Of a DNA stretch of 64,000 nucleotides, positions 5,884-18,429 are shown piece after piece. A program made the position numbers and the translations under genes. How positions within the stretch are numbered: the first letter of the stretch is position 1; every line of letters begins with the position of its first letter. The notes beneath the pieces are model-generated. The model was given only the letters and a program-made list of their open reading frames with translations, searched no databases and had not been told where the DNA came from. The DNA is from Candidatus Moranbacteria bacterium GW2011_GWE2_35_2-. Its GTDB lineage: Bacteria; Patescibacteriota; Minisyncoccia; Moranbacterales; UBA9337. The stretch lies in the NCBI GenBank assembly GCA_000990585.1, contig LBQD01000003.1:79504-143503 (forward strand), read 5' to 3'.

Positions 5884-6816
5884 TTATTTTTCAATAAAAC
5901 GGGAAACTTCTTTTTCAATATTTGCGTACTTGTTTTTTTCTTTTTGCTCGATTGGAATCCAGATAATTCTTTTGTCTTTTGCAAACCAAGTTCTTTGACG
6001 TTTGGCATAATTTTTTTCTGCCAGGTATATTTTTTCTTTTAATTCCTCTTTGTTTTTTATGTTTCCTTTTAAGTACTCCGGAATTAAGTTGTAACTAAGT
6101 CCAAAGCTTTGGATTTTTTTCCAACTCAGTTTGTATTTTTCATGCAAATCTTTCACTTCTTCAATCATTCCCATTGAAAATCTTCTGGTGACATTTTTTT
6201 TTATTCTTTCATTTAATTCTTCTTTTTCTCTTGCTATACCTATTTGTAAAAAATCATAATTCTTAATTTTTGATTCTTGATTCATGGGTGGGACTTTCCC
6301 GATGGCTTTGCAAATTTCTATTGCTCGAATTAATCTGACTTTATTTTTAGCATCAATATTTTTCGCTCTTTCCGGATCCAGTTTTTTTAATTTATTAAAA
6401 AGGATTTCCGTGCTTAATTCTTGCATCTTAATTCTTAATTCTTGATTTGGTTTTACTTCCGGAAAATCCACGTTGTCGACAAGCGCTTTGATCCAAAATC
6501 CGGTTCCGCCACAAATGATCGGAACTTTGCCGCGCTTCAAAATATCCTTGATTATTTTCTCGGTTTTCTTTTTGAATTTGGCGGCGTTATATTCCGTTTT
6601 TGGCGAGGCGATATCAAGCATATGGTGCGGAACCATTTTTTGTTCCGCTTCGGTTATTTTTCCAGATCCGATGTCCATTCCGCGGTAAATCTGTCGTGAG
6701 TCAGCGGAAATTATCTCACCATCAAATTTTTGCGCAAGCCGAATTGCCACATCCGATTTTCCGGAAGCAGTAGGACCGAGGATGACGATTATTTTATTAT
6801 CGCTTCTAAATTCCAT
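5884..6816 (-). CDS. miaA: tRNA dimethylallyltransferase
   Basis: IVILGPTASGKS P-loop. IPP-transferase family length and motifs. Confidence 0.9.
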   Translation of the reverse strand: MEFRSDNKIIVILGPTASGKSDVAIRLAQKFDGEIISADSRQIYRGMDIGSGKITEAEQKMVPHHMLDIASPKTEYNAAKFKKKTEKIIKDILKRGKVPIICGGTGFWIKALVDNVDFPEVKPNQELRIKMQELSTEILFNKLKKLDPERAKNIDAKNKVRLIRAIEICKAIGKVPPMNQESKIKNYDFLQIGIAREKEELNERIKKNVTRRFSMGMIEEVKDLHEKYKLSWKKIQSFGLSYNLIPEYLKGNIKNKEELKEKIYLAEKNYAKRQRTWFAKDKRIIWIPIEQKEKNKYANIEKEVSRFIEK

Positions 6817-8351
6817 ATGCTTGCCTTGGTGATTTTTGCTTTTATTATTTTTCCGATGAGATTTTTTGACTCCGACGTTTTGTCGGAGTGAAAATTGGGT
6901 ACAATTTTCACATTTTTCATTGTGCGGGTTTTGCCGAAATAGTTTCCGTTTTTTTTGTTTTCAATCAAGACTTCTAAAGTTTTTCCGACATATTTTTTGT
7001 TATTTTCAAAACACGTTTTCTTGAGAATTTCGTTGAGATAATTTGCTCTTCTTTCTTTTTCCATTTTACTGACGTTATCTTTCATTTTCCAGGCGGCAGT
7101 TTGCGGGCGGGGGGAGAATTTTCCGAAAAATACCATATCGAATTTCGCCTTGCGCATCACTTCGGCGCTATCTTCAAATTGTTTTTTGGTTTCTCCCGGA
7201 AAGCCAACGATAATGTCGGAAGTGATTGAAAATGGAACAGCGGGTTTGTGTTTCTTGAATGCTGATTTTATTTTGCGGACTTTTGTCAGATATTCTTTCT
7301 GGGTATATTTTCGGTTCATATTTTTCAAAACTTCGTCGCAACCGGCTTGAATGGGAAGATGGAAATTTTCGCAAACCTTTTTGCATTTGGCGACCGTTTC
7401 AATCATTTCATCAGTCACGTCTTTCGGATGATTGCTCACAAAACTGATCCAAAATTTTCCGGGAATCGCGTTGATTTTTTTCAGGAGTTGGGGGAAATTT
7501 ATGCTATCGTTCTTGACCCCCTCTGTCCTCCGGACATCTCCCCCTTGGAAAGGGGGAGAGGGTAAAGAGGGGGATTTGTATGAATTCACATTTTGTCCGA
7601 GCAGGATGATGTGCTTTGTTCTATTTTTTATCAATTTTTTTATTTCGGAAATTATTTCATCTGCCATGCGGGAAACTTCGCGTCCGCGGGCGTAGGGAAC
7701 AACGCAGTAGGCGCAAAAATTGTTGCAGCCGGTCATTATGGGGACGCCGGCTTGAAATTTATCGGAGTATTTTGGGGTAATCGAAAAATAGGAAGTATTA
7801 TTTTTGCGGGTTGTTAATTCAGGATACGCCGGAATTTTCAATTTTTCCGCCAAAGGCGGACCAGCCTTGGGCTGGCAATTTACAATTTTTCCGCCAAAGG
7901 CGGACCAGCCTTGGGCTGGCAAACAATTTTCAATGACAAATTTTTCAAACTTTTTGAATCCATTGATTGGGAAAAATAGGTCTACTTTGTTTTTCAATCT
8001 TCTTTGCACATCCGGTCTGTTTGCCAAACATCCTGTCAATATGATTTTAATTCTTGATTTCTGATTCTCGATTCCTGATTCTTGATTCCTGTCTCTCAGA
8101 TTATGTATTTGTCCATAAACCCGGTCTTCTGCCATTTGTCGCACTCCGCAGGTATTAAAAATAACCAAATTGGCGTCATTGATGTTTTTGGTTTCTTTAA
8201 ATTTTTGAGACGACAAAAATCCAGCGATTCTTTCGCTGTCGCTGTAATTCATTTGACACCCGAACGTTTTTATGTAATACTTTAGCATTGAAGTTGTTTG
8301 AAAAATAAATAGTAGTTTTTTCAGCATATCAAAAATTGACCCTAAAATCAA
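6789..8351 (-). CDS. miaB: tRNA-i6A37 methylthiotransferase (radical SAM MTTase) with in-frame repeat insertions
   Basis: MTTase N-domain (KTFGCQMN). Radical SAM CNNFCAYC. TRAM-like C-terminus. About 70 aa longer than usual because of repeat-derived insertions. Confidence 0.85.
   Translation of the reverse strand: MILGSIFDMLKKLLFIFQTTSMLKYYIKTFGCQMNYSDSERIAGFLSSQKFKETKNINDANLVIFNTCGVRQMAEDRVYGQIHNLRDRNQESGIENQKSRIKIILTGCLANRPDVQRRLKNKVDLFFPINGFKKFEKFVIENCLPAQGWSAFGGKIVNCQPKAGPPLAEKLKIPAYPELTTRKNNTSYFSITPKYSDKFQAGVPIMTGCNNFCAYCVVPYARGREVSRMADEIISEIKKLIKNRTKHIILLGQNVNSYKSPSLPSPPFQGGDVRRTEGVKNDSINFPQLLKKINAIPGKFWISFVSNHPKDVTDEMIETVAKCKKVCENFHLPIQAGCDEVLKNMNRKYTQKEYLTKVRKIKSAFKKHKPAVPFSITSDIIVGFPGETKKQFEDSAEVMRKAKFDMVFFGKFSPRPQTAAWKMKDNVSKMEKERRANYLNEILKKTCFENNKKYVGKTLEVLIENKKNGNYFGKTRTMKNVKIVPNFHSDKTSESKNLIGKIIKAKITKASIWNLEAIIK
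7516..7578. repeat. GC-rich palindromic module (TCTCCCCCTT-GGA-AAGGGGGAGA) inserted in frame in miaB
   Basis: Perfect 10-bp arms. Locally GC-rich in an AT-rich gene. Encodes SPSLPSPPFQGGDVRRTEG. Related module in the DGR RT at 18009-18050. Confidence 0.7.
7842..7926. repeat. two tandem copies of a 44-bp GC-rich unit inside miaB
   Basis: TTTTTCCGCCAAAGGCGGACCAGCCTTGGGCTGGCAA occurs twice. It holds sub-palindromes CCGCC-AAAG-GCGG and CCAGCC-TTG-GGCTGG. The ORF stays open. Confidence 0.8.
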
Positions 8352-10662: not shown

Positions 10663-13600
10663 TTAGGTTAATTCAATTTTTGCGCCGGTGGTTTTTTCTA
10701 TTTTTTCGATTAAATCTTTTCCTATGGCGACGCTGTACGAGGTTTCCATTTTTGATTCATTAAGCGAAAGATAGATTCTGGTTTTTCCGAATTTGCAGAC
10801 GCCGAGAGTGTCGGAAATATTTTTGAGGGTCATTTGGCTGGATTCGGGAGGTAAAATAATAGTAAGCTTTTCATTTTTAATTGGTGCATCCTTTTTTTCA
10901 AAATGTCCGTTGCTTTTTTGCGTGTGCAAAACTCTTTTGAAACTTTCCAATTCTTGCTGGTTTATTTCCTTGGCGTCTTCAGCTAGGATTTTGAAAACCC
11001 CGTCTTTGTCCGAAAGTTTTCCTTCGACCAAAACAATGCGGTCTTCTTGCCAAATTGAGCCAATCCGTTCCAGCGTTTTGGGAAAAATTAGAAGTTCTAT
11101 TTTTCCCTTCAAATCTTCAATCGTGGCAAACATCATTTCTTGATGGCGCTTGGTGATGATTTTTTTGACCGCGCTGATAACTCCTCCGACTTTTACCATC
11201 TGCCCGACCATATTTTGGTTCAATGCGTTGACGGGAATCGCCATTTGGTTAAAATATTCCTGATAATCAGAAACCGGATGTCCGCTTACATATAGTCCCA
11301 GCAGTTCTTTTTCCCATTGCAATTTTTCCTTCTTTTCCGCCGGAGCTGCCGGTTCGAGTTGAATTTTTGCTTTGGAAAGAATTTCTTCGCCAAAGAGGCT
11401 GGTTTGACTGGAATTTTTATTTTTTTGGATATTCTTGGAAAAAGCCAGAATAGTTTCTATATTTTCCAGAATTTGATTCCGCTCCGCCATTTGATCAAGC
11501 GCGCCCACTTTTGCCAGCGCTTCAATTGATTTTTTATTCAAATCCCGAATAGTGATTCTTTCAAGCATATCTCCGAGACCTGCATATTTTCCATTTCTTT
11601 TTCTTTCAGCGACAATTTCATGAGCGACCGGCTTGCCCACATTTTTTATGGCATTGAGTCCAAAGCGAATTTTTTCGTTATTATCAGTTCCCTTAACAAC
11701 CGCGAATTCTTCAAAGCTTTCATTGACATCCGGAGGCAAAACTTCGATTCCCATATGTTTGGCTTCATCCACCTCGATAGCGATGCGTTCGATGTTATCT
11801 TGGTCGGAAGTCATCAGTGCCGCCATAAACTCTGCCGGATAATGCGCTTTGAGATATGCTGTTTGATAACCGATGAGTCCATAGCAGGCGGCGTGGGAAT
11901 TATGAACCACGAAATCATTGGCGACAAAGTTGTGAGTGCTTTCGATGGTCAAATCGTAGGTCTTTTTTCTGCCTGATTTTTCGATGGAAATTATTTTATC
12001 CCAATAAATATCAGAGTTTCCCAATTCTAAAAGTTTTTTGCTTTTGAGTATTTTTCCGATTTCAAAAACAGTTTCCCGTAAAAAACCAACCTTCCTTTTG
12101 TCCTTGAAAAACAATCTTTCGGCAAAGTTGTATTCTTGGGAAAATTCTTTAGCGGAATATCCGGCATTTATAATTTCTTTTCTGATAATTTCGATAATTT
12201 CGGATGGAATAATGTCGCGGCTTCCGCGCGCGGAATAATTTTTTAATTGCCCATTTATTATTGGGTGGTTTTTGACGGCTTGTTTGATGTTTTTTAGTTT
12301 TTCTCCGATCAGATATTTTCCGGGACCTTTGTAGAAATTTTCGATATTATTGTACCTGTTTATGGTAAGTGTATATCCGATTTTTATCGTGTTTTTATAT
12401 TTAAATTTTTTCTTATGAATCGTGCCGATAATATTCAGCCGTAAAAGCAAATGTTGGAGCTGATGTGCCATTTTTTTTGAAGATGTCGCATAAAATATTT
12501 GCGGATATTTTCGGGAAAGACTCACACATCCGTCTCCTTGAAACATTTTTCCAATAAGCAAAGACAAGTCTTCGGAGTCTAACTTGAAAGCCAATTCTGG
12601 AATCTCCTTTTCGGTGGCTCTTTTTCCGTGAATTCCGATTGATTTTATCCAATCAACTGCTCCCGACTTTTCTTTCAGATTGATTCTTCCTGCATAAATC
12701 GAGGTTGCCGGTTTGCTTTTGTTGACTGTCGCTTTCGTGTTTTTAAACTTTTGCAAATTCAAAGTATATTCCTTTAATTCTGCCTTGTTTTTTGAGTAGA
12801 AATAGAAGCTGTGCGGATGGCACAAATTTCCTTCGGCCAGCAAGTATCCCAAGATAATCAATTTGTATTTCTCCATTTTTATTCCCTTAAAATTTAAAGG
12901 AAGGTTTCGCGCCATGGCTATTCTTTCTCCTGCCTTTATTTCTTCCAATTTTTTCCATCCGGAAATTGTCAAAAGCGGATGGTTGGCGGTGGCTTTGATT
13001 GTTTTTCCCAGCGCGGTTTTTATTTTAAAAACATCTTTCGTTCCATTGAAAAAAACTTTTGTTATTTTTCCATTTCCAAGTTTCAAATCATTTTTCAATG
13101 TTAAAATTTCGGGAAGTTTTTTTTTGTTGTTGTGCCAGTTATATAATTCTTCAAGGCGGAATTGCTTGCCGCTTTTTGCGTCGGTTATGAGCGTATCTCC
13201 ATCCAAGCATCGATTAAAGCCGTATCCGGCGAACGGTTCGATAAAAGCGAAAACATTTTCGGCAGTTTTTTTGTCGATTCCATTTTTTACGCATCCTTCA
13301 ACGAATTTTATTTTCTGTTCCTGAATTAAATTTAAAATTTTCTTTCCTACCGCTTTGCGAAGAACGTCAGCTTCTCCCAAGGTAAAACCGGCAAGCTGTT
13401 GTGCCATCTGCATAACTTGTTCTTGATAAACTGCTACGCCATAAGTTTTTTTCAAAATCGGTTCCAGTTTTGGATGCAAATAAGTTATCTTTTTCAATCC
13501 ATGTTTGCGCGCGATAAAGTCCGGTATCCAATCCATCGGTCCGGGGCGGTAAAGCGCTACCATAGCAATCACATCTTCAAGATTATTCGGCATTAATTGC

Positions 13601-15468
13601 TTGAGATATCTTTTCATTCCACTGCTTTCCAATTGAAATACTCCCGTGGTATTGGCGTGTTGCAAAAGTTCGTAGGTTTTTTTGTCATCCAGCGGAATAT
13701 TTTCAATGTCGATTTCCAACCCCTTTGTTTTGCGGACAATATTGAGAGTATTTTGGATGATGGTAAGATTTTTCAGTCCCAGAAAGTCCATCTTGAGAAG
13801 TCCGATTTTTTCCACATAGCTGGACTTGGTGGAAGATGAATATTGCGTGACTAATCCGTCGCCCCCTTTGGCGAGAGTTTGTAATGGGGAGTAGGCAGTA
13901 ACAGGTTCTTTGGTAATTACTACTCCGCATGCATGCATTGAAGCGTGGCGGGCAACACCTTCCAATTTTTTGGCGCTGTCGATCAGCTTTTTTCCATTAG
14001 GGTCGCTTTCATAAAGTTGCTTGAATTCTTTTGCATCTTCAAGCGCTTCTGCGATATCGGAAAACATTGGAATCATTTTGGCAGTTCGATCGCAAAAGCT
14101 GTACTCCAGGCCAAGTGCGCGTCCGGCATCGCGAATAGCGGCGCGAGCGGCCATCGTTCCAAAAGTAATAATCTGTGCTACGTGATCGTGGCCATATTTT
14201 TTTCGCACATAATCCAAAACTTCATCGCGGCGGTTGTCGGCGAAATCCATATCGACATCGGGCATAGATATTCTTTCCGGATTGAGAAATCGTTCAAAAA
14301 GCAGATCATACTTTATTGGGTCGACATTGGTTATTCCGATAAGATATGAAACAAAACTTCCTGCGGCACTTCCGCGACCCGGTCCGACGACGATTCCTTG
14401 CTGTTTTGCCCAATTGACAAAATCTTGAACGATAAGGAAGTATGATGGAAATCCGGTTTTTTCAATAATTTTCAGTTCGTATTCCATGCGATCGCGGTGT
14501 TCTTGCGTGATGTTTCCTTGATATTTTTTTTCGAGTCCTTTTTCAGTAAGATGGCGGAGATAAGTGACGTCCGTATATCCATCCGGAACGTCGAAATGAG
14601 GGAGTTGCGTTTCTCCGAGTTTGATATGAAAATCGCATTTATTGACAATTTCCTGGGTATTGGCGATAGCCTCGGGAGTATTTTTGAACGCACGTTGCAT
14701 TTCTTCCGGAGATTTCATCGAGAGATCGAAATCCATCAAGCTCATGCGGTTTTTTTCTTGGACTTTACGGTTGGTTTGGATACAGAGAAGAATGTCTTGT
14801 ATCTCAGCATCTTCTTTGTTGACATAATGAATATCTCCGGTGGCAACAACAGGAATTCCGGTTTTTTTGGAAATTTCCAGCATTCCCTTATTGGCATTTT
14901 TCTGTTCATTGTTGTTGGGATGATGTTGAAGTTCCATGAAAAAATTTCCTTTGCCAAAAATTTGTTCATATTCGCGAGCGACATCCCGCGCTTTTTCATA
15001 ATTTCCATTATTGATTTCATTGGGAATTTCTCCGGCTAGGCATCCGCTCATCGCAATCAGTCCGGTGGAATATTTTCTCAAAGTTTTTTTGTCAATTCTG
15101 GGCTTGTAATAGAATCCTTCCAAGTGGGCGATGGAAACCAGATGCATCAGATTTTTGTATCCATCTTCATCTTTGACCAAAAGAGTGAGGTGGTGCATTT
15201 TTCTATCAAGAGCTGTATTATTTTTGCTGGTTAAATCATGGGAAACATACATTTCGCATCCGATAATCGGTTTGATTCCCCGTTCTTTGGCTTTGATGGA
15301 AAATTCCACTGCGCCATACATCACGCCGTGGTCGGTGAGTGCCAGCGAGTCCATTCCCATTTCTTTGGCGCGGTCAAGAAGCTCATCGATTTTTGCCAAA
15401 CCGTCCAGGAGTGAATAATGGCTATGGACATGCAAGTGAGTAAATTTTTTATTTGAATTTTCCGGCAT
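10663..15468 (-). CDS. dnaE: DNA polymerase III alpha subunit DnaE containing an intein
   Basis: PHP domain (HLHVHSHYSLLDG). Polymerase core. FAGYGFNR|...|SHAACYG is split by a 437-aa insertion. The extein is about 1164 aa. Confidence 0.9.
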   Translation of the reverse strand: MPENSNKKFTHLHVHSHYSLLDGLAKIDELLDRAKEMGMDSLALTDHGVMYGAVEFSIKAKERGIKPIIGCEMYVSHDLTSKNNTALDRKMHHLTLLVKDEDGYKNLMHLVSIAHLEGFYYKPRIDKKTLRKYSTGLIAMSGCLAGEIPNEINNGNYEKARDVAREYEQIFGKGNFFMELQHHPNNNEQKNANKGMLEISKKTGIPVVATGDIHYVNKEDAEIQDILLCIQTNRKVQEKNRMSLMDFDLSMKSPEEMQRAFKNTPEAIANTQEIVNKCDFHIKLGETQLPHFDVPDGYTDVTYLRHLTEKGLEKKYQGNITQEHRDRMEYELKIIEKTGFPSYFLIVQDFVNWAKQQGIVVGPGRGSAAGSFVSYLIGITNVDPIKYDLLFERFLNPERISMPDVDMDFADNRRDEVLDYVRKKYGHDHVAQIITFGTMAARAAIRDAGRALGLEYSFCDRTAKMIPMFSDIAEALEDAKEFKQLYESDPNGKKLIDSAKKLEGVARHASMHACGVVITKEPVTAYSPLQTLAKGGDGLVTQYSSSTKSSYVEKIGLLKMDFLGLKNLTIIQNTLNIVRKTKGLEIDIENIPLDDKKTYELLQHANTTGVFQLESSGMKRYLKQLMPNNLEDVIAMVALYRPGPMDWIPDFIARKHGLKKITYLHPKLEPILKKTYGVAVYQEQVMQMAQQLAGFTLGEADVLRKAVGKKILNLIQEQKIKFVEGCVKNGIDKKTAENVFAFIEPFAGYGFNRCLDGDTLITDAKSGKQFRLEELYNWHNNKKKLPEILTLKNDLKLGNGKITKVFFNGTKDVFKIKTALGKTIKATANHPLLTISGWKKLEEIKAGERIAMARNLPLNFKGIKMEKYKLIILGYLLAEGNLCHPHSFYFYSKNKAELKEYTLNLQKFKNTKATVNKSKPATSIYAGRINLKEKSGAVDWIKSIGIHGKRATEKEIPELAFKLDSEDLSLLIGKMFQGDGCVSLSRKYPQIFYATSSKKMAHQLQHLLLRLNIIGTIHKKKFKYKNTIKIGYTLTINRYNNIENFYKGPGKYLIGEKLKNIKQAVKNHPIINGQLKNYSARGSRDIIPSEIIEIIRKEIINAGYSAKEFSQEYNFAERLFFKDKRKVGFLRETVFEIGKILKSKKLLELGNSDIYWDKIISIEKSGRKKTYDLTIESTHNFVANDFVVHNSHAACYGLIGYQTAYLKAHYPAEFMAALMTSDQDNIERIAIEVDEAKHMGIEVLPPDVNESFEEFAVVKGTDNNEKIRFGLNAIKNVGKPVAHEIVAERKRNGKYAGLGDMLERITIRDLNKKSIEALAKVGALDQMAERNQILENIETILAFSKNIQKNKNSSQTSLFGEEILSKAKIQLEPAAPAEKKEKLQWEKELLGLYVSGHPVSDYQEYFNQMAIPVNALNQNMVGQMVKVGGVISAVKKIITKRHQEMMFATIEDLKGKIELLIFPKTLERIGSIWQEDRIVLVEGKLSDKDGVFKILAEDAKEINQQELESFKRVLHTQKSNGHFEKKDAPIKNEKLTIILPPESSQMTLKNISDTLGVCKFGKTRIYLSLNESKMETSYSVAIGKDLIEKIEKTTGAKIELT
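11899..13209 (-). mobile_element. intein with LAGLIDADG homing-endonuclease domain in DnaE
   Basis: Starts CLDGDTLI (block A) just after GFNR. LAGLIDADG-like LIILGYLLAEGN and LLIGKMFQGDGCV. Ends ...FVVHN followed by S. Splits the conserved GFNKSHA motif. Confidence 0.8.
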
Positions 15469-15802: not shown

Positions 15803-15832
15803 TTGACAAAACGCCGAAAATATGTATATAAT
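15803..15832 (+). promoter_or_regulatory. sigma70-like promoter upstream of the DGR target gene
   Basis: TTGACA at 15803, an ~18-bp spacer, then TATAAT at 15827. Confidence 0.5.
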
Positions 15833-15907
15833 GTAATGATATGCTGGAAAAGCATAGAGTTCATTTAATGGCGAGTCTGGGGCTTTGGCGTGGTGCTAAA
15901 GTGAGGG

Positions 15908-16600
15908 ATGAGCCAAATAAAAAAGAGGTGTGTTATGTCGAAAAGCAAGAAGCAGGTTGAGGCGATTGTGTCGGCGATGGGAGTTTTCACGGCGATTATT
16001 TCCACTCTCGTTGAACTGGTCAAAAAGTTCGGCGGAACGATGGAAAACATCTATCGTTTGGCGATTCCGGAAGGGCTTGTGACCCTGGAGGAGGTTGCGC
16101 GGGTGATCGTCGGGGCTGTTAAAGTTAAAAACGAGTTTCTCTGCCTCATTTTCGGTGGTGAAAATCTCATTATCGACGAGTGCAATGGTCGTGAAATTCT
16201 TGCCGATGCCAGTGATGTATTTGACTGGATCGACAGCGATTTTCGGAGCTGGGGTGCGGATGAGCAGGGACCAGCTACTAAAAAAACTCCCGTTCAGGTT
16301 TACGAGCTGGAAAAGGATGGGAAATTTCCTCAGATTTACGGCGCGCATTCGTCTGATCTGGATAAGCTCTGTCTAACCCAGCACCAGATTAAAAAATTTG
16401 TGCAGAAGTGTCGCGATTGGTTGAGAACTGATGGATACGGAACGTTTTTCTTATTCAAATCCAAGGGACATTATTTCGTCGCCGGTGTGGGCTTTGATTC
16501 CGGTGGCAGGCTTTGGGTGAGCGTGCACCGGCTCGAGAATGTGTATGTCTGGGATGCCGAGAATCGATATCGCTTTGTGTTTCCGCAACTGGACATCTAA
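15908..16600 (+). CDS. DGR variable (target) protein, 230 aa, C-terminal VR
   Basis: Its 3' 116 bp is a near-copy of the downstream TR, with adenine-specific differences. Higher GC than the surroundings. Confidence 0.7.
   Translation: MSQIKKRCVMSKSKKQVEAIVSAMGVFTAIISTLVELVKKFGGTMENIYRLAIPEGLVTLEEVARVIVGAVKVKNEFLCLIFGGENLIIDECNGREILADASDVFDWIDSDFRSWGADEQGPATKKTPVQVYELEKDGKFPQIYGAHSSDLDKLCLTQHQIKKFVQKCRDWLRTDGYGTFFLFKSKGHYFVAGVGFDSGGRLWVSVHRLENVYVWDAENRYRFVFPQLDI
16475..16590 (+). repeat. DGR variable repeat (VR)
   Basis: 116-bp ungapped alignment to 16908-17023. 15 mismatches, 13 at TR adenines. Confidence 0.75.
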
Positions 16601-16907
16601 CACTTTGTCCTATTGTGGCGCTTTGTCCCTTGGACTCTTTGACGCTTCTGCGTTTTGAGTTCAAGGGATTTTTTTGTATAATAAAATTGCAATCCTGGAA
16701 ATATCCGCGGTCAAGGCTTCGGGTCAAGGTTGTTGGAAAAATATATTCCGGAATTTTGTCGGACAAGTCTTGCAAAAGAGTGAAGATATTTTTTTAAAAA
16801 TAAAAACAGACAGTTGGTGCGGTAAATTGGAGAACTTTTAGGGTTTCAAATAAAATTCAATCCAGAGAGTATTCAATGGATGGTGGTATTGATGATTTGC
16901 CGCATAC

Positions 16908-17023
16908 TTCGTCGCCAATGTGAACTTTAATTCCGATGGCAGGCTTAAGGTGAGCGTGAACCGGCTCGAGAATGACAATGTCTGGAATGCCGAGAATCGA
17001 CATCGCTTTGTGTTTCCGAAACT
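16908..17023 (+). repeat. DGR template repeat (TR)
   Basis: Noncoding copy of the VR. Variable positions are AAY/AAR codons (aat, aac, aat, aag, aac, gacaat, aat, aaa). Confidence 0.75.
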
Positions 17024-17036
17024 TTCTGTTTTTCTC

Positions 17037-17339
17037 TCATCCATTCGATGAGAGTTTTTTATCCAAACCTTTTTTCCAACCGCCAAGCATTCTTCCGATT
17101 TCTTCCAATTTCTCGGAAAGGTCGATATATTTTTCATTGGGAATAAGTTTGTTTTCCCAAGCGGTTTGAGTAAAAAATTTCAAAACATCCAGTCTGGAGA
17201 TAGTCTTGCTTAAAAATATTATTTTATGTTCCGGCGGGAGATATGAAGCAGTAAAGGAAAGTTCCAGGATTTCAAGAAAAAGATTGTCAACTTTTCTCCC
17301 AATTCCATAGCGTTCGGTCTTGGGAAAATCACGATGCAA
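17037..17339 (-). CDS. avd: Avd-like four-helix-bundle accessory protein (23S-IVS protein family)
   Basis: FPKTERYGIGRKV...NEKYIDLSEKLEEIGRMLGGW matches the FPKEEKYGL...MLNgLi pattern. The ORF probably extends upstream to a non-ATG start. Opposite strand to the RT. Confidence 0.55.
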   Translation of the reverse strand: MHRDFPKTERYGIGRKVDNLFLEILELSFTASYLPPEHKIIFLSKTISRLDVLKFFTQTAWENKLIPNEKYIDLSEKLEEIGRMLGGWKKGLDKKLSSNG

Positions 17340-17391
17340 AATTAACCAAAAAGAATAAGATTCTTTAAGCTTATGAATTACAACAGGGACG

Positions 17392-18429
17392 TTGCCGGGG
17401 GGGGGTTATAAAAGTCATAGTTTTGCTTTTCCGGACAAAAGCAAAAGTGCTTTTGATGGGAAAAATAAATTAAAAATTACATTTGAAGAAATCATATCTT
17501 TGGAAAATCTGCTGGAGGCTTGGAAAGAATTTGAAAAAGGAAAGAAAAACAGAAAAGATGTGCAGGAATTTTCAATGAATCTGATGGATAATATTTTTTC
17601 TCTCCATCAAGATCTTCTCAATCATACCTACAAACACGGCGGTTATCAAGCTTTCAAAATCAATGATCCCAAGCCTAGAGATATCCACAAAGCAAAAGTC
17701 AGGGACAGGCTTTTGCATCACGCCATCTACCGAAAACTCTATCCGTTTTTCGACAAAACTTTTATTTCCGATTCATATTCTTGCCGAATAAACAAAGGCA
17801 CACACAAAGCGATTGAAAAATTTCGAAAGTATTTTAACAAAGTAAGTCAAAACAACACGAAAACTTGTTATGTTCTCAAATGCGACATCAAAAAGTTTTT
17901 CGCCAGTATTGACCACGAAATTCTAATTTCAATCTTGAAAGAACATATTCCGGATGAAAATATTTTGTGGTTATTGGTGGAAATTATTGAAAGTTTTCAT
18001 ATTTCAAAACCCCTCCCCAGCCCTCCCCTTGAAAAGGGGAGGGGGATTGGACTGCCGCTGGGCAATTTAACCTCGCAATTGTTTGTGAATATTTATATGA
18101 ACAAATTTGACCAGTTCGTCAAACATAAACTGAAAGCCGAATATTACATTCGCTATGCCGACGATTTTGTGTTTTTGTCGCAAGACAGAAAATGGTTGGA
18201 AGATTTGATTCCAAGAGTCGGCAAATTTTTAGGCGATGAATTAAAACTCAAATTGCATCCGAATAAAGTTTACATCAAAACTTTTTCTTCCGGCGTGGAT
18301 TTTTTGGGAATAATCAATTTTCCGCACCACAAAATCCTGCGGACGAAAACGAAAAGAAGAATGATGAAAAAAATATTTCTCAATCATAAGATGTTGAGAG
18401 AGGGATTGATTTCAGAAGATAAATTTTAA
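17392..18429 (+). CDS. DGR reverse transcriptase
   Basis: RT domains with YADD (IRYADDFVFL). DGR-type motif IGLPLGNLTSQLFVNIYMNKFD. About 330 aa. Start uncertain and likely non-ATG. Confidence 0.85.
   Translation: MPGGGYKSHSFAFPDKSKSAFDGKNKLKITFEEIISLENLLEAWKEFEKGKKNRKDVQEFSMNLMDNIFSLHQDLLNHTYKHGGYQAFKINDPKPRDIHKAKVRDRLLHHAIYRKLYPFFDKTFISDSYSCRINKGTHKAIEKFRKYFNKVSQNNTKTCYVLKCDIKKFFASIDHEILISILKEHIPDENILWLLVEIIESFHISKPLPSPPLEKGRGIGLPLGNLTSQLFVNIYMNKFDQFVKHKLKAEYYIRYADDFVFLSQDRKWLEDLIPRVGKFLGDELKLKLHPNKVYIKTFSSGVDFLGIINFPHHKILRTKTKRRMMKKIFLNHKMLREGLISEDKF
17397..17405. repeat. G9 homopolymer between divergent avd and RT
   Basis: gccGGGGGGGGGtta, unusual in an AT-rich genome. Lies in the 5' region of both genes. 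Confidence 0.8.
18009..18050. repeat. GC-rich palindromic module (CCCTCCCCTT-GAA-AAGGGGAGGG) inserted in frame in the RT gene
   Basis: Perfect 10-bp arms. Encodes PLPSPPLEKGRG just before the conserved IGLPLGNLTSQ motif. Confidence 0.7.

Follow-up and report, generated by a model that had tools for sequence, protein, structure and literature searches.

Positions 15803-18429 of a 64-kb stretch of DNA from a Candidatus Moranbacteria genome (the whole stretch is called the window below) carry, in this order, a target gene, a template repeat (TR), an inverted avd gene and a reverse transcriptase (RT) gene (Table 1). These components identify the locus as a genuine diversity-generating retroelement (DGR), of a kind already known to be common in bacteria of the candidate phyla radiation (CPR). 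CPR bacteria are among the taxa richest in DGRs, and DGRs are, to our knowledge, the only targeted protein hypermutation known in prokaryotes. An earlier reading of the same DNA (the original prediction) had announced a complete DGR here. All the components it listed were found at or near the places it had given them, and its headline was right but ordinary: the element is of a well-catalogued CPR type. What appears to be new is a single-base tract in avd, a stand-alone gene for the TR RNA with a structured 5′ leader, and the size of the target family. For comparison, we fetched 79 genomic loci encoding relatives of the target protein. In 35 of them avd lay on the opposite strand downstream of the target, and in 28 RT was also present. 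The core assignment is strongly backed because of the adenine bias of the mismatches here and in 31 related loci, the affinity of RT to bRT (the RT of the BPP-1 DGR) and the match of Avd to its family profile.

Table 1. Features of the DGR locus, in window coordinates.
Feature	Position	Strand	Remarks
Target promoter, sigma-70-type, TTGACA-18-TATAAT	15803..15832	+	12/12 consensus match; predicted from consensus alone
Target gene, 221 aa	15935..16600	+	Hydrophobic N-terminal helix, small helical region, putative C-terminal divergent C-type lectin (CLec)-like domain (~62-221)
Variable repeat (VR)	16472..16590	+	Target codons 180-218 of 221 (39 codons); ungapped match to TR
IMH-like 3′ end of VR (TCGCTTTGTGTTTCCGCAACTGG) (IMH, initiation of mutagenic homing)	16570..16592	+	C at 16586 is the fixed difference from TR
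Target terminator hairpin CCCTTGGACTC...GAGTTCAAGGG	16627..16675	+	Hairpin 16627-16667, then T7; kept in relatives, with compensatory changes visible in the alignment
TR RNA promoter, TTGAGT-16-TATAAT	16655..16682	+	10/12 match; -10 box 16677-16682 directly after the T-run
TR RNA 5′ leader, ~220 nt, 9 helices	16683..16904	+	RNAalifold covariation, 27 loci
TR	16905..17023	+	30 adenines, of which 27 precede the IMH*-like end; read in the target frame, 8 codons are AAY
TR RNA intrinsic terminator, 8-bp hairpin CTCTCATC/GATGAGAG	17034..17060	+	Hairpin 17034-17054, then T6; overlaps the avd stop codon
avd	17037..17418	-	From ATG 17418-17416 through poly-C to a stop codon ending at 17037; C9 leaves the ATG one base out of frame
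Single-base tract	17397..17405	G9 on +	Poly-C (Pro-Pro-Pro) on the avd strand; putative slippage/phase switch
DGR RT	17392..18429	+	YADD, LGNLTSQ; PF00078; bRT homology from 17482 (F31)

TR and VR align without gaps over 119 nt at an offset of 433 and are 87% identical. Thirteen of the 16 mismatches were at the 30 adenine positions of TR, and 3 were at the 89 other positions (Fisher p = 5.3e-7). The original prediction had counted 15 mismatches between 16475 and 16590, 13 of them on TR adenines. This count was reproduced (8 A>G, 3 A>T and 2 A>C, with the other 2 on TR cytosines), and tabulation of the substitutions by TR base confirmed the enrichment at adenines. All 13 adenine mismatches fell at codon positions 1 or 2. 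When the 32 loci with alignable VR and TR (window included) were pooled, 551 of 598 mismatches (92%) were on TR adenines, while adenine makes up 26% of TR bases. Changes at bases other than adenine are frequent in CPR DGRs (Wu et al. 2018, PMC5758913).

The same bias was seen in the protein family. The AAY codons (Y = C or T) of TR had been reported to coincide with the positions that vary in VR, and an alignment of 70 homologues agreed with this. Column entropy exceeded 3 bits at 10 columns, all with an adenine in the TR codon and 8 with an AAY codon. No adenine-free column exceeded 3 bits among these homologues, and the scaffold columns between the hypervariable ones were nearly invariant. 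Mutation of the 27 mutable adenines could change 17 codons, with a theoretical repertoire of about 1.6e15 protein sequences. No second TR-like or target-like sequence that might serve as a remote target was found within the 64-kb window.

At their 3′ ends, VR reads CCGCAACTGG and TR reads CCGAAACT. The same fixed difference was found in nearly all of the 32 loci, with no variation at the adenines beyond it, and codon 218 encoded Q in 56 of the 70 homologues. By analogy with BPP-1, we infer that the 3′ end of VR acts as IMH.

Variation among close relatives was seen in a 90% cluster (P0025) with 19 members. The 15 members listed were almost identical over residues 1-180 and differed at the VR columns. 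Judged from these sequences, the differences are population-level diversification. For the organism of the window, only one VR allele was found: its protein cluster consists of one sequence, which was read on 23 contigs and appears in 35 indexed blocks of the collection.

The target gene had been proposed as an open reading frame (ORF) of 230 aa at 15908-16600, fed by a strong promoter. The promoter was confirmed as a perfect match to the consensus (Table 1). The ORF exists, but 15908 is the mechanical maximum of the frame; ATG 15935, giving 221 aa, is the likely start because it has a Shine-Dalgarno sequence (GAGGTG), begins an N-terminus (MSKSKK) common to the homologues and agrees with the NCBI annotation. 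The GC-richness claimed for the locus relative to its flanks applies to the target gene (0.46-0.49 GC) and not to avd and RT, which have the GC content of the flanks (0.34-0.38). In most relatives (L002-L079), the elements at 16596-16650, around the end of the target gene and the start of its terminator hairpin, recur at the corresponding place.

No Pfam or NCBIfam family matched the target protein. In a profile search of 1.84 billion representatives, its family comprised 2,569 clusters at 50% identity with E <= 1e-3, or 1,985 with E <= 1e-10. The members are mostly 200-230 aa long. A few longer members, such as P0314 (476 aa) and P0315 (560 aa), have two or three tandem copies of the putative C-terminal CLec-like domain. 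AlphaFold (AF2) models had a predicted local distance difference test score (pLDDT) of 90.2 at full length, and of 93.6 with a predicted template modelling score (pTM) of 0.90 for residues 62-221. The original prediction had suggested a new variable-protein scaffold. This was not upheld: the C-terminal part might rather be a CLec-like domain that has diverged strongly. The variable columns occur in alternation on the predicted strands 179-187 and 193-199 and extend into the loop after them. By analogy with DGR targets of known structure, this stretch should form a ligand-binding face. Residues 11-29 have a mean Kyte-Doolittle hydropathy of 2.07, and by similar analogy the N-terminal helix may anchor the protein at the cell surface. 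With ~2,000 clusters and no Pfam model, the family is a large group, as yet uncharacterised, of what are probably surface binders of episymbiotic bacteria.

The assignment of the RT gene to the DGR type, with a YADD motif, was borne out. Its best match in PDB was 8ub7 (BPP-1 bRT; E = 1.2e-40), and the next were group II RTs at 5e-17 or weaker, so that bRT is far closer than group II among solved structures. At the bRT fidelity positions, PKPR aligned to R74 and LGNLTSQ to the bRT sequence IGSLTSQ (I181...SQ).

The start of RT is less regular than its body. Only with G9 or G12 does the RT frame extend across the G tract as far as TTG 17392. In relatives, RT starts at an ATG 9-13 codons before the conserved F-E-x-I-I-S, and the tract lies 19-60 nt upstream of that ATG. 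The equivalent ATG in the window, at 17456, is one base out of frame (ATG GGA AAA ATA AAT TAA). One A added to the A5 run at 17460-17464 would restore M-G-K-N-K-L-K-I-T-F-E-E-I-I-S; the run is A5 in the five assemblies that cover it. In assemblies with G10 in place of G9, gene callers chose TTG 17500 as the RT start. Either translation of RT begins at an internal or non-canonical codon, or the copy is in decay.

The avd gene had been placed at 17037-17339 on the minus strand, which is the mechanically listed ORF with a TTG start and 100 aa. Its product matched PF22296 (bAvd) at 50.4 bits (cut-off 40), but it aligned only from profile position 19 and is incomplete at the N-terminus. Above the listed TTG, the avd frame stays open and encodes a conserved P-x-V-[IL]-x-K-x-K-E-[AS]-Y-x-x-W, which supplies the missing first 18 positions of the profile. 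It then continues into the poly-C at codons ~5-8, which are read as Pro-Pro-Pro. The variability by codon position of these 17 upstream codons (0.41/0.33/0.56) was like that of the gene body (0.39/0.30/0.61). No conserved start codon was found between the tract and the upstream peptide and helix 1 of Avd, and eleven loci, including the window, have none there at all. In most loci an ATG lies 4-49 nt upstream of the tract, and in about half of them it lies at 13-16 nt. In the window, the start reads ATG ACT TTT ATA A followed by C9, with the ATG 13 nt before the tract.

Database proteins gave a similar picture. A search with the hypothetical in-frame Avd recovered many homologues of 120-144 aa with N-termini such as MTIMTPPPKTSPAVIIKEKEAY, among them one (P0142) with 81% identity over 99% of the query. 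A leader of the form M-x(2-6)-PP(P)-...KEKEAY, with PP, PPP or PPPP, was present in 42 of the 120 best Avd homologues. Two loci without a tract (L035 and L072) retain the in-frame avd leader. We regard the tract as probably coding, because the peptide is conserved, a conserved internal start is lacking, an upstream ATG is nearby and tract-less alleles are in frame.

The original prediction had rightly listed the G9 tract, and had given it no role. It is the only G/C run of at least 8 in the 64 kb. Of the 35 loci with avd, 28 have a run of G6 to G15 between avd and RT, and the exceptions were mostly at contig ends or N-masked gaps. CCC accounts for 24% of Pro codons in the neighbouring genes. 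That the run is strictly C-only across loci whose Avd proteins are 50-70% identical therefore suggests selection on the single-base run itself. We also considered the Pro-Pro-Pro stretch as a stalling signal dependent on elongation factor P (EF-P), but only CCC codons are used, which speaks for selection on the nucleotide sequence.

A further observation concerns avd. One locus (L009) has two avd copies (6134-6403 and 7758-8039), each with its own G11 tract and a similar RT-start region, and the full RT follows only the second.

Tract lengths were compared between assemblies whose flanks are identical base for base. For the organism of the window, the window itself and an older Rifle contig (L109) had G9, and four other assemblies had G10. 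Over 7.6 kb, three of these four were otherwise identical to the window and the fourth differed by one single-nucleotide polymorphism. An exact-pattern scan of metagenome contigs of the Joint Genome Institute (JGI) for the tract flank of this organism found a single contig, with G9. In a Portnoybacteria-like population, C8, C9 and C10 were found, and the corresponding Avd calls, which draw on different upstream frames, had 114, 142 and 128 aa; the 142-aa (C9) and 128-aa (C10) forms were read on 24 and 18 contigs, respectively. In the P0025 population, G6 (Avd of 132 aa where called) and G7 (114 aa) were found with the same VR allele.

These length differences suggest that the tract is probably a phase switch of Avd supply. 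Our preferred reading, which we consider likely, is that the locus is a chromosomal CPR (Patescibacteria) DGR of Architecture B3 in which the avd tract probably switches hypermutation on and off. Under the BPP-1 paradigm, TR would be transcribed into RNA, RT and Avd would copy this RNA into cDNA with misincorporation opposite adenines, and the cDNA would replace VR in a direction set by the fixed difference at the 3′ end. Slippage would change the length of the poly-C and bring the avd ATG in or out of frame, so that Avd supply, and hence mutagenic homing, would be switched reversibly by tract length. The avd ATG of the window is in frame only for C8 or C11, and both observed lengths, C9 and C10, are out of frame. 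The DGR in this organism is thus predicted to be OFF at present, which fits the single VR allele on record.

Several points weigh against a simple switch. An upstream start is in frame with the tract in 11 of 30 loci and in 42 of 120 database proteins, or about one third. A non-coding tract would give this fraction, as would a phase-variable gene that is not strongly biased. In 17 of 28 loci an in-frame GTG or TTG, a possible avd start, follows just after the tract. Of the three tract lengths in one population, two are compatible with an in-frame ATG, so that the tract may switch between leaders rather than purely on and off. No tract length in the window puts both the avd ATG (C8 or C11) and the RT TTG 17392 (G9 or G12) in frame. 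The usual RT ATG is frameshifted, and the copy may simply be decaying. The roles proposed for the IMH-like end, the leader and the membrane anchor are drawn by analogy, and the switching of expression by the tract is a prediction from assembly sequences.

Decay is one alternative. This copy would be an inactive DGR, with avd and the RT start frameshifted and VR frozen, and the tract polymorphism would be neutral slippage. The avd ATG is out of frame in all six assemblies, whether G9 or G10, the usual RT ATG is shifted by one base at the A5 run, the VR allele on record is a single one (a single-sequence cluster with 23 contigs read), and 3 of the TR/VR mismatches are not on adenine. With both the avd ATG and the usual RT ATG out of frame, the claim of a complete DGR is doubtful for this copy, while the core (TR/VR, RT and the Avd match) stands. 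However, the bodies of RT and Avd have no internal stops and all the catalytic motifs are intact, the promoter, leader helices and terminator of the TR RNA are all preserved, and non-adenine changes are frequent in CPR DGRs (Wu et al. 2018). The strict single-base run, retained across loci with Avd ~50-70% identical, also argues for selection on the tract. We consider decay unlikely. If the tract were neutral, the locus would be an ordinary, possibly decaying member of a well-catalogued class.

The tract could also be a non-coding element, of DNA or RNA, within the region that controls the divergent avd and RT genes, such as a promoter spacer, an element of the RT 5′ untranslated region (UTR) or a roadblock to read-through from TR. 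Avd would then start downstream, and the ATG and Pro-Pro-Pro would be coincidental. The position of the tract, 19-60 nt upstream of the RT ATG in relatives, would suit such an element, as would the proportion of about one third in frame and the GTG or TTG codons shortly after the tract in 17 of 28 loci, where gene callers often start Avd. But these codons are not kept as starts (GTA, GTT or CTx are found elsewhere, and eleven loci including the window have none), and the stretch of peptide from the tract to the listed start is conserved and varies as coding sequence does. Moreover, lineages without a tract retain an in-frame ATG and leader in the equivalent position, and nearly all loci have an ATG 4-49 nt upstream of the tract, about half of them at 13-16 nt. 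We therefore regard a non-coding tract as quite unlikely.

The length differences might instead be artefacts of sequencing or assembly at a single-base run. One-base differences in G9/G10 runs can arise in Illumina assembly, and the lengths compared here come from different assemblies. Such errors are much less likely for G6/G7, which differ in the same way, as do C8/C9/C10. The 142-aa (C9) and 128-aa (C10) forms of Avd were each read on many independent contigs (24 and 18), and the flanks were identical base for base. An artefact is very unlikely to account for all these cases.

The remaining explanation, that TR is a pseudogene duplicate of the target 3′ end with random divergence or that RT belongs to a group II intron or retron, was refuted by the substitution table (p = 5e-7 for the adenine bias here; 92% of 598 mismatches on TR adenines across loci) and the RT comparison: the best named NCBIfam model was group_II_RT_mat, yet at 141 bits against a cut-off of 300, bRT was by far the best solved relative, avd adjoins, and no intron RNA domains were found, the only Rfam matches at the gathering threshold being tRNAs.

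The TR RNA appears to have its own promoter, leader and terminator. A TATAAT or TATACT box was found in all aligned loci at the place corresponding to the -10 box of the window. From these signals, TR is predicted to be a stand-alone gene of about 375 nt, with a transcript from ~16689 to ~17060. RNAalifold on the 27-locus alignment gave 50 pairs in the leader, 36 of them with compensatory double changes. In this structure 93.8% of cells were paired, versus 41-50% when the partners were slid by 1-3 columns, and 226 cells showed double changes, versus 28-48 in the slid controls; none of 500 shuffles reached the observed values. Immediately before TR, the 3′ domain of the leader is closed by a long-range helix of 12 bp (16817-16828 with 16894-16905).

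Downstream, a hairpin of 7-12 bp lies ~10 nt past TR in 24 of 25 related loci, with an inner stem of differing sequence and a T-run at once after it. These hairpins were folded locus by locus, because RNAalifold on the MAFFT alignment misaligned the arms and gave 5 pairs only. The TR RNA as predicted thus has no room for a BPP-1-like 140-nt 3′ spacer, and therefore its structured part is 5′ of TR. The RNA elements that recruit RT-Avd, which in BPP-1 belong to a 3′ spacer, would therefore probably be found 5′ of TR as well.

The leader matched no Rfam family at the gathering threshold; in the whole search only tRNAs did. A permissive scan of the leader hairpins gave RT-9 at 22.3 bits (gathering 46.1) and RT-7 at 22.0 bits (gathering 116.8), and in 15 related loci no RT-n motif reached the threshold. 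Within these RT-n motifs, which are structured RNAs found beside RT genes, RT-10 is the BPP-1 spacer, and the others have been speculated to serve DGRs (Weinberg et al. 2017, PMC5737381). The first leader hairpin, with the loop GGUYAMGGCU, fits the RT-9 consensus (RF03080), and a leader hairpin followed by AGAGUG fits the 5′ hairpin of RT-7 (RF03028). This likeness leaves most of the leader uncovered, including the 12-bp closing helix. We also considered pairing of the VR end CAACTG(G) (16587-16592) with the invariant single-stranded leader sequence (C)AGTTGG (16811-16816). The two are complementary, but L044, a locus in which the VR end is changed, shows no covariation, and the match may be due to chance.

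The layout TR(+)-avd(-)-RT(+) had been called non-canonical. It is Architecture B3, TR-(avd)-RT, of Wu et al. (2018, NAR 46:11, PMC5758913), and is the norm for this phylum: avd is on the opposite strand downstream of the target in 35 of the 79 related loci, and about 30 of the 79 have the complete order of target, TR, avd(-) and RT(+). The window has the B3 core order, with TR at 16905-17023 (+), avd at 17037-17418 (-), RT from 17392 (+) and no other accessory gene. CPR DGRs fall in the cell-encoded clade 2, and their targets lack recognisable domains and were expected to be novel C-Lec variants (Roux et al. 2021, PMC8144416). The gene order, the inverted avd, the CPR host and the chromosomal site are common to these DGRs and the window locus, as are a small target without recognisable domains and occasional non-adenine substitutions; no architectural difference was seen. 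The locus probably belongs to the set of Wu et al., which includes GW2011 groundwater genomes.

The likeness to BPP-1 (mtd-avd-TR-brt) extends to the LGxxxSQ motif of RT, the equivalent of R74, the four-helix-bundle Avd, the pattern of adenine-to-any-base changes with AAY codons, the position of VR at the C-terminus of a domain that is putatively of CLec type, and the IMH/IMH*-like fixed difference at the 3′ end. The window differs in that avd is on the opposite strand and contains a frameshift-prone poly-C run, and in that the TR RNA is predicted to be a separate transcript ending ~35 nt past TR. It has no GC hairpin directly after IMH; the conserved hairpin is the terminator ~35 nt downstream. 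Whereas BPP-1 cDNA priming uses the 140-nt 3′ spacer (Rfam RT-10), the window has the ~220-nt structured leader 5′ of TR.

The avd tract resembles the contingency loci with poly-G/C runs in Neisseria, Campylobacter and Helicobacter, and that of Mycobacterium glpK. In both, a G/C run of 6-15 lies within the first codons, its length differs by one base within populations, all three frames occur, and some lineages have tract-less 'locked' alleles. As in a contingency gene, the run in avd sets the frame from the 5′ coding region, and its length varies between identical flanks at the level of assemblies. The difference is that the gene putatively switched is a hypermutator accessory factor and not a surface or restriction-modification gene. 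If true, one stochastic mutator would gate another.

Taken as a whole, the locus is a probable new regulatory variant of a known system. More tentatively, hypermutation might be phase-variable across a large CPR DGR lineage, with one-base poly-C slippage at high frequency producing ON and OFF cells in each population and a heritable but reversible frameshift freezing a useful VR allele, and with a template RNA that carries its recognition or priming structure 5′ of TR; this combined proposal is possible, though we would not call it probable. No paper was found that connects DGRs or avd with phase variation or single-base tracts, and none that describes the stand-alone TR RNA gene or its 5′ leader structure, in searches that did not extend to Paul et al. 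2017 and the supplements of Wu et al.

If the switch is real, a reversible frameshift in an essential accessory gene would be a simple answer to the question of how useful variants escape overwriting. If the leader has the proposed role, the RNA geometry of cDNA priming would differ from that of BPP-1, and its place 5′ of TR suggests that the BPP-1 priming geometry is not universal. The TR RNA of ~375 nt, with a leader supported by covariation, is a defined substrate for the reconstitution of a CPR DGR in vitro.

Some minor observations concern RT. A perfect GC-rich palindrome (CCCTCCCC TTGAAAA GGGGAGGG) at 18021-18043 encodes an extra 'PSPPLEKGRG' between motifs 3 and 4. The length of this loop varies among relatives, with a similar insert in L012 and other inserts in L005, L061 and L052; small palindromic insertions are apparently tolerated here. 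At 17421-17446, a perfect hairpin of 10 bp (TTTTGCTTTT CCGGAC AAAAGCAAAA) separates the G tract from the conserved RT N-terminus, in a stretch that on the opposite strand would be the avd 5′ UTR. One relative (L002) has two GC hairpins at the equivalent place and the others have none. In four loci of the P0025 population (L098, L099, L101 and L105), an IS200/IS605-type Y1 transposase directly follows a shortened RT call of 165-175 aa, and one contig of the population has a longer call. RT may be interrupted in part of this population despite its VR diversity.

The neighbours named in the original prediction, dnaE, rnhB and a HepT/MntA pair, were confirmed around the locus. The HepT/MntA-type toxin-antitoxin pair (PF01934 and PF18765; 18537-19403, minus strand) directly follows RT. 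We considered it as a part of the element and rejected this, as none of the 79 related loci has a homologue of it; the pair is an unlinked neighbour. On the other side, dnaE (10663-15468, minus strand; 1601 aa) is split by an intein that carries a LAGLIDADG homing-endonuclease domain (Pfam Intein_splicing and LAGLIDADG_3).

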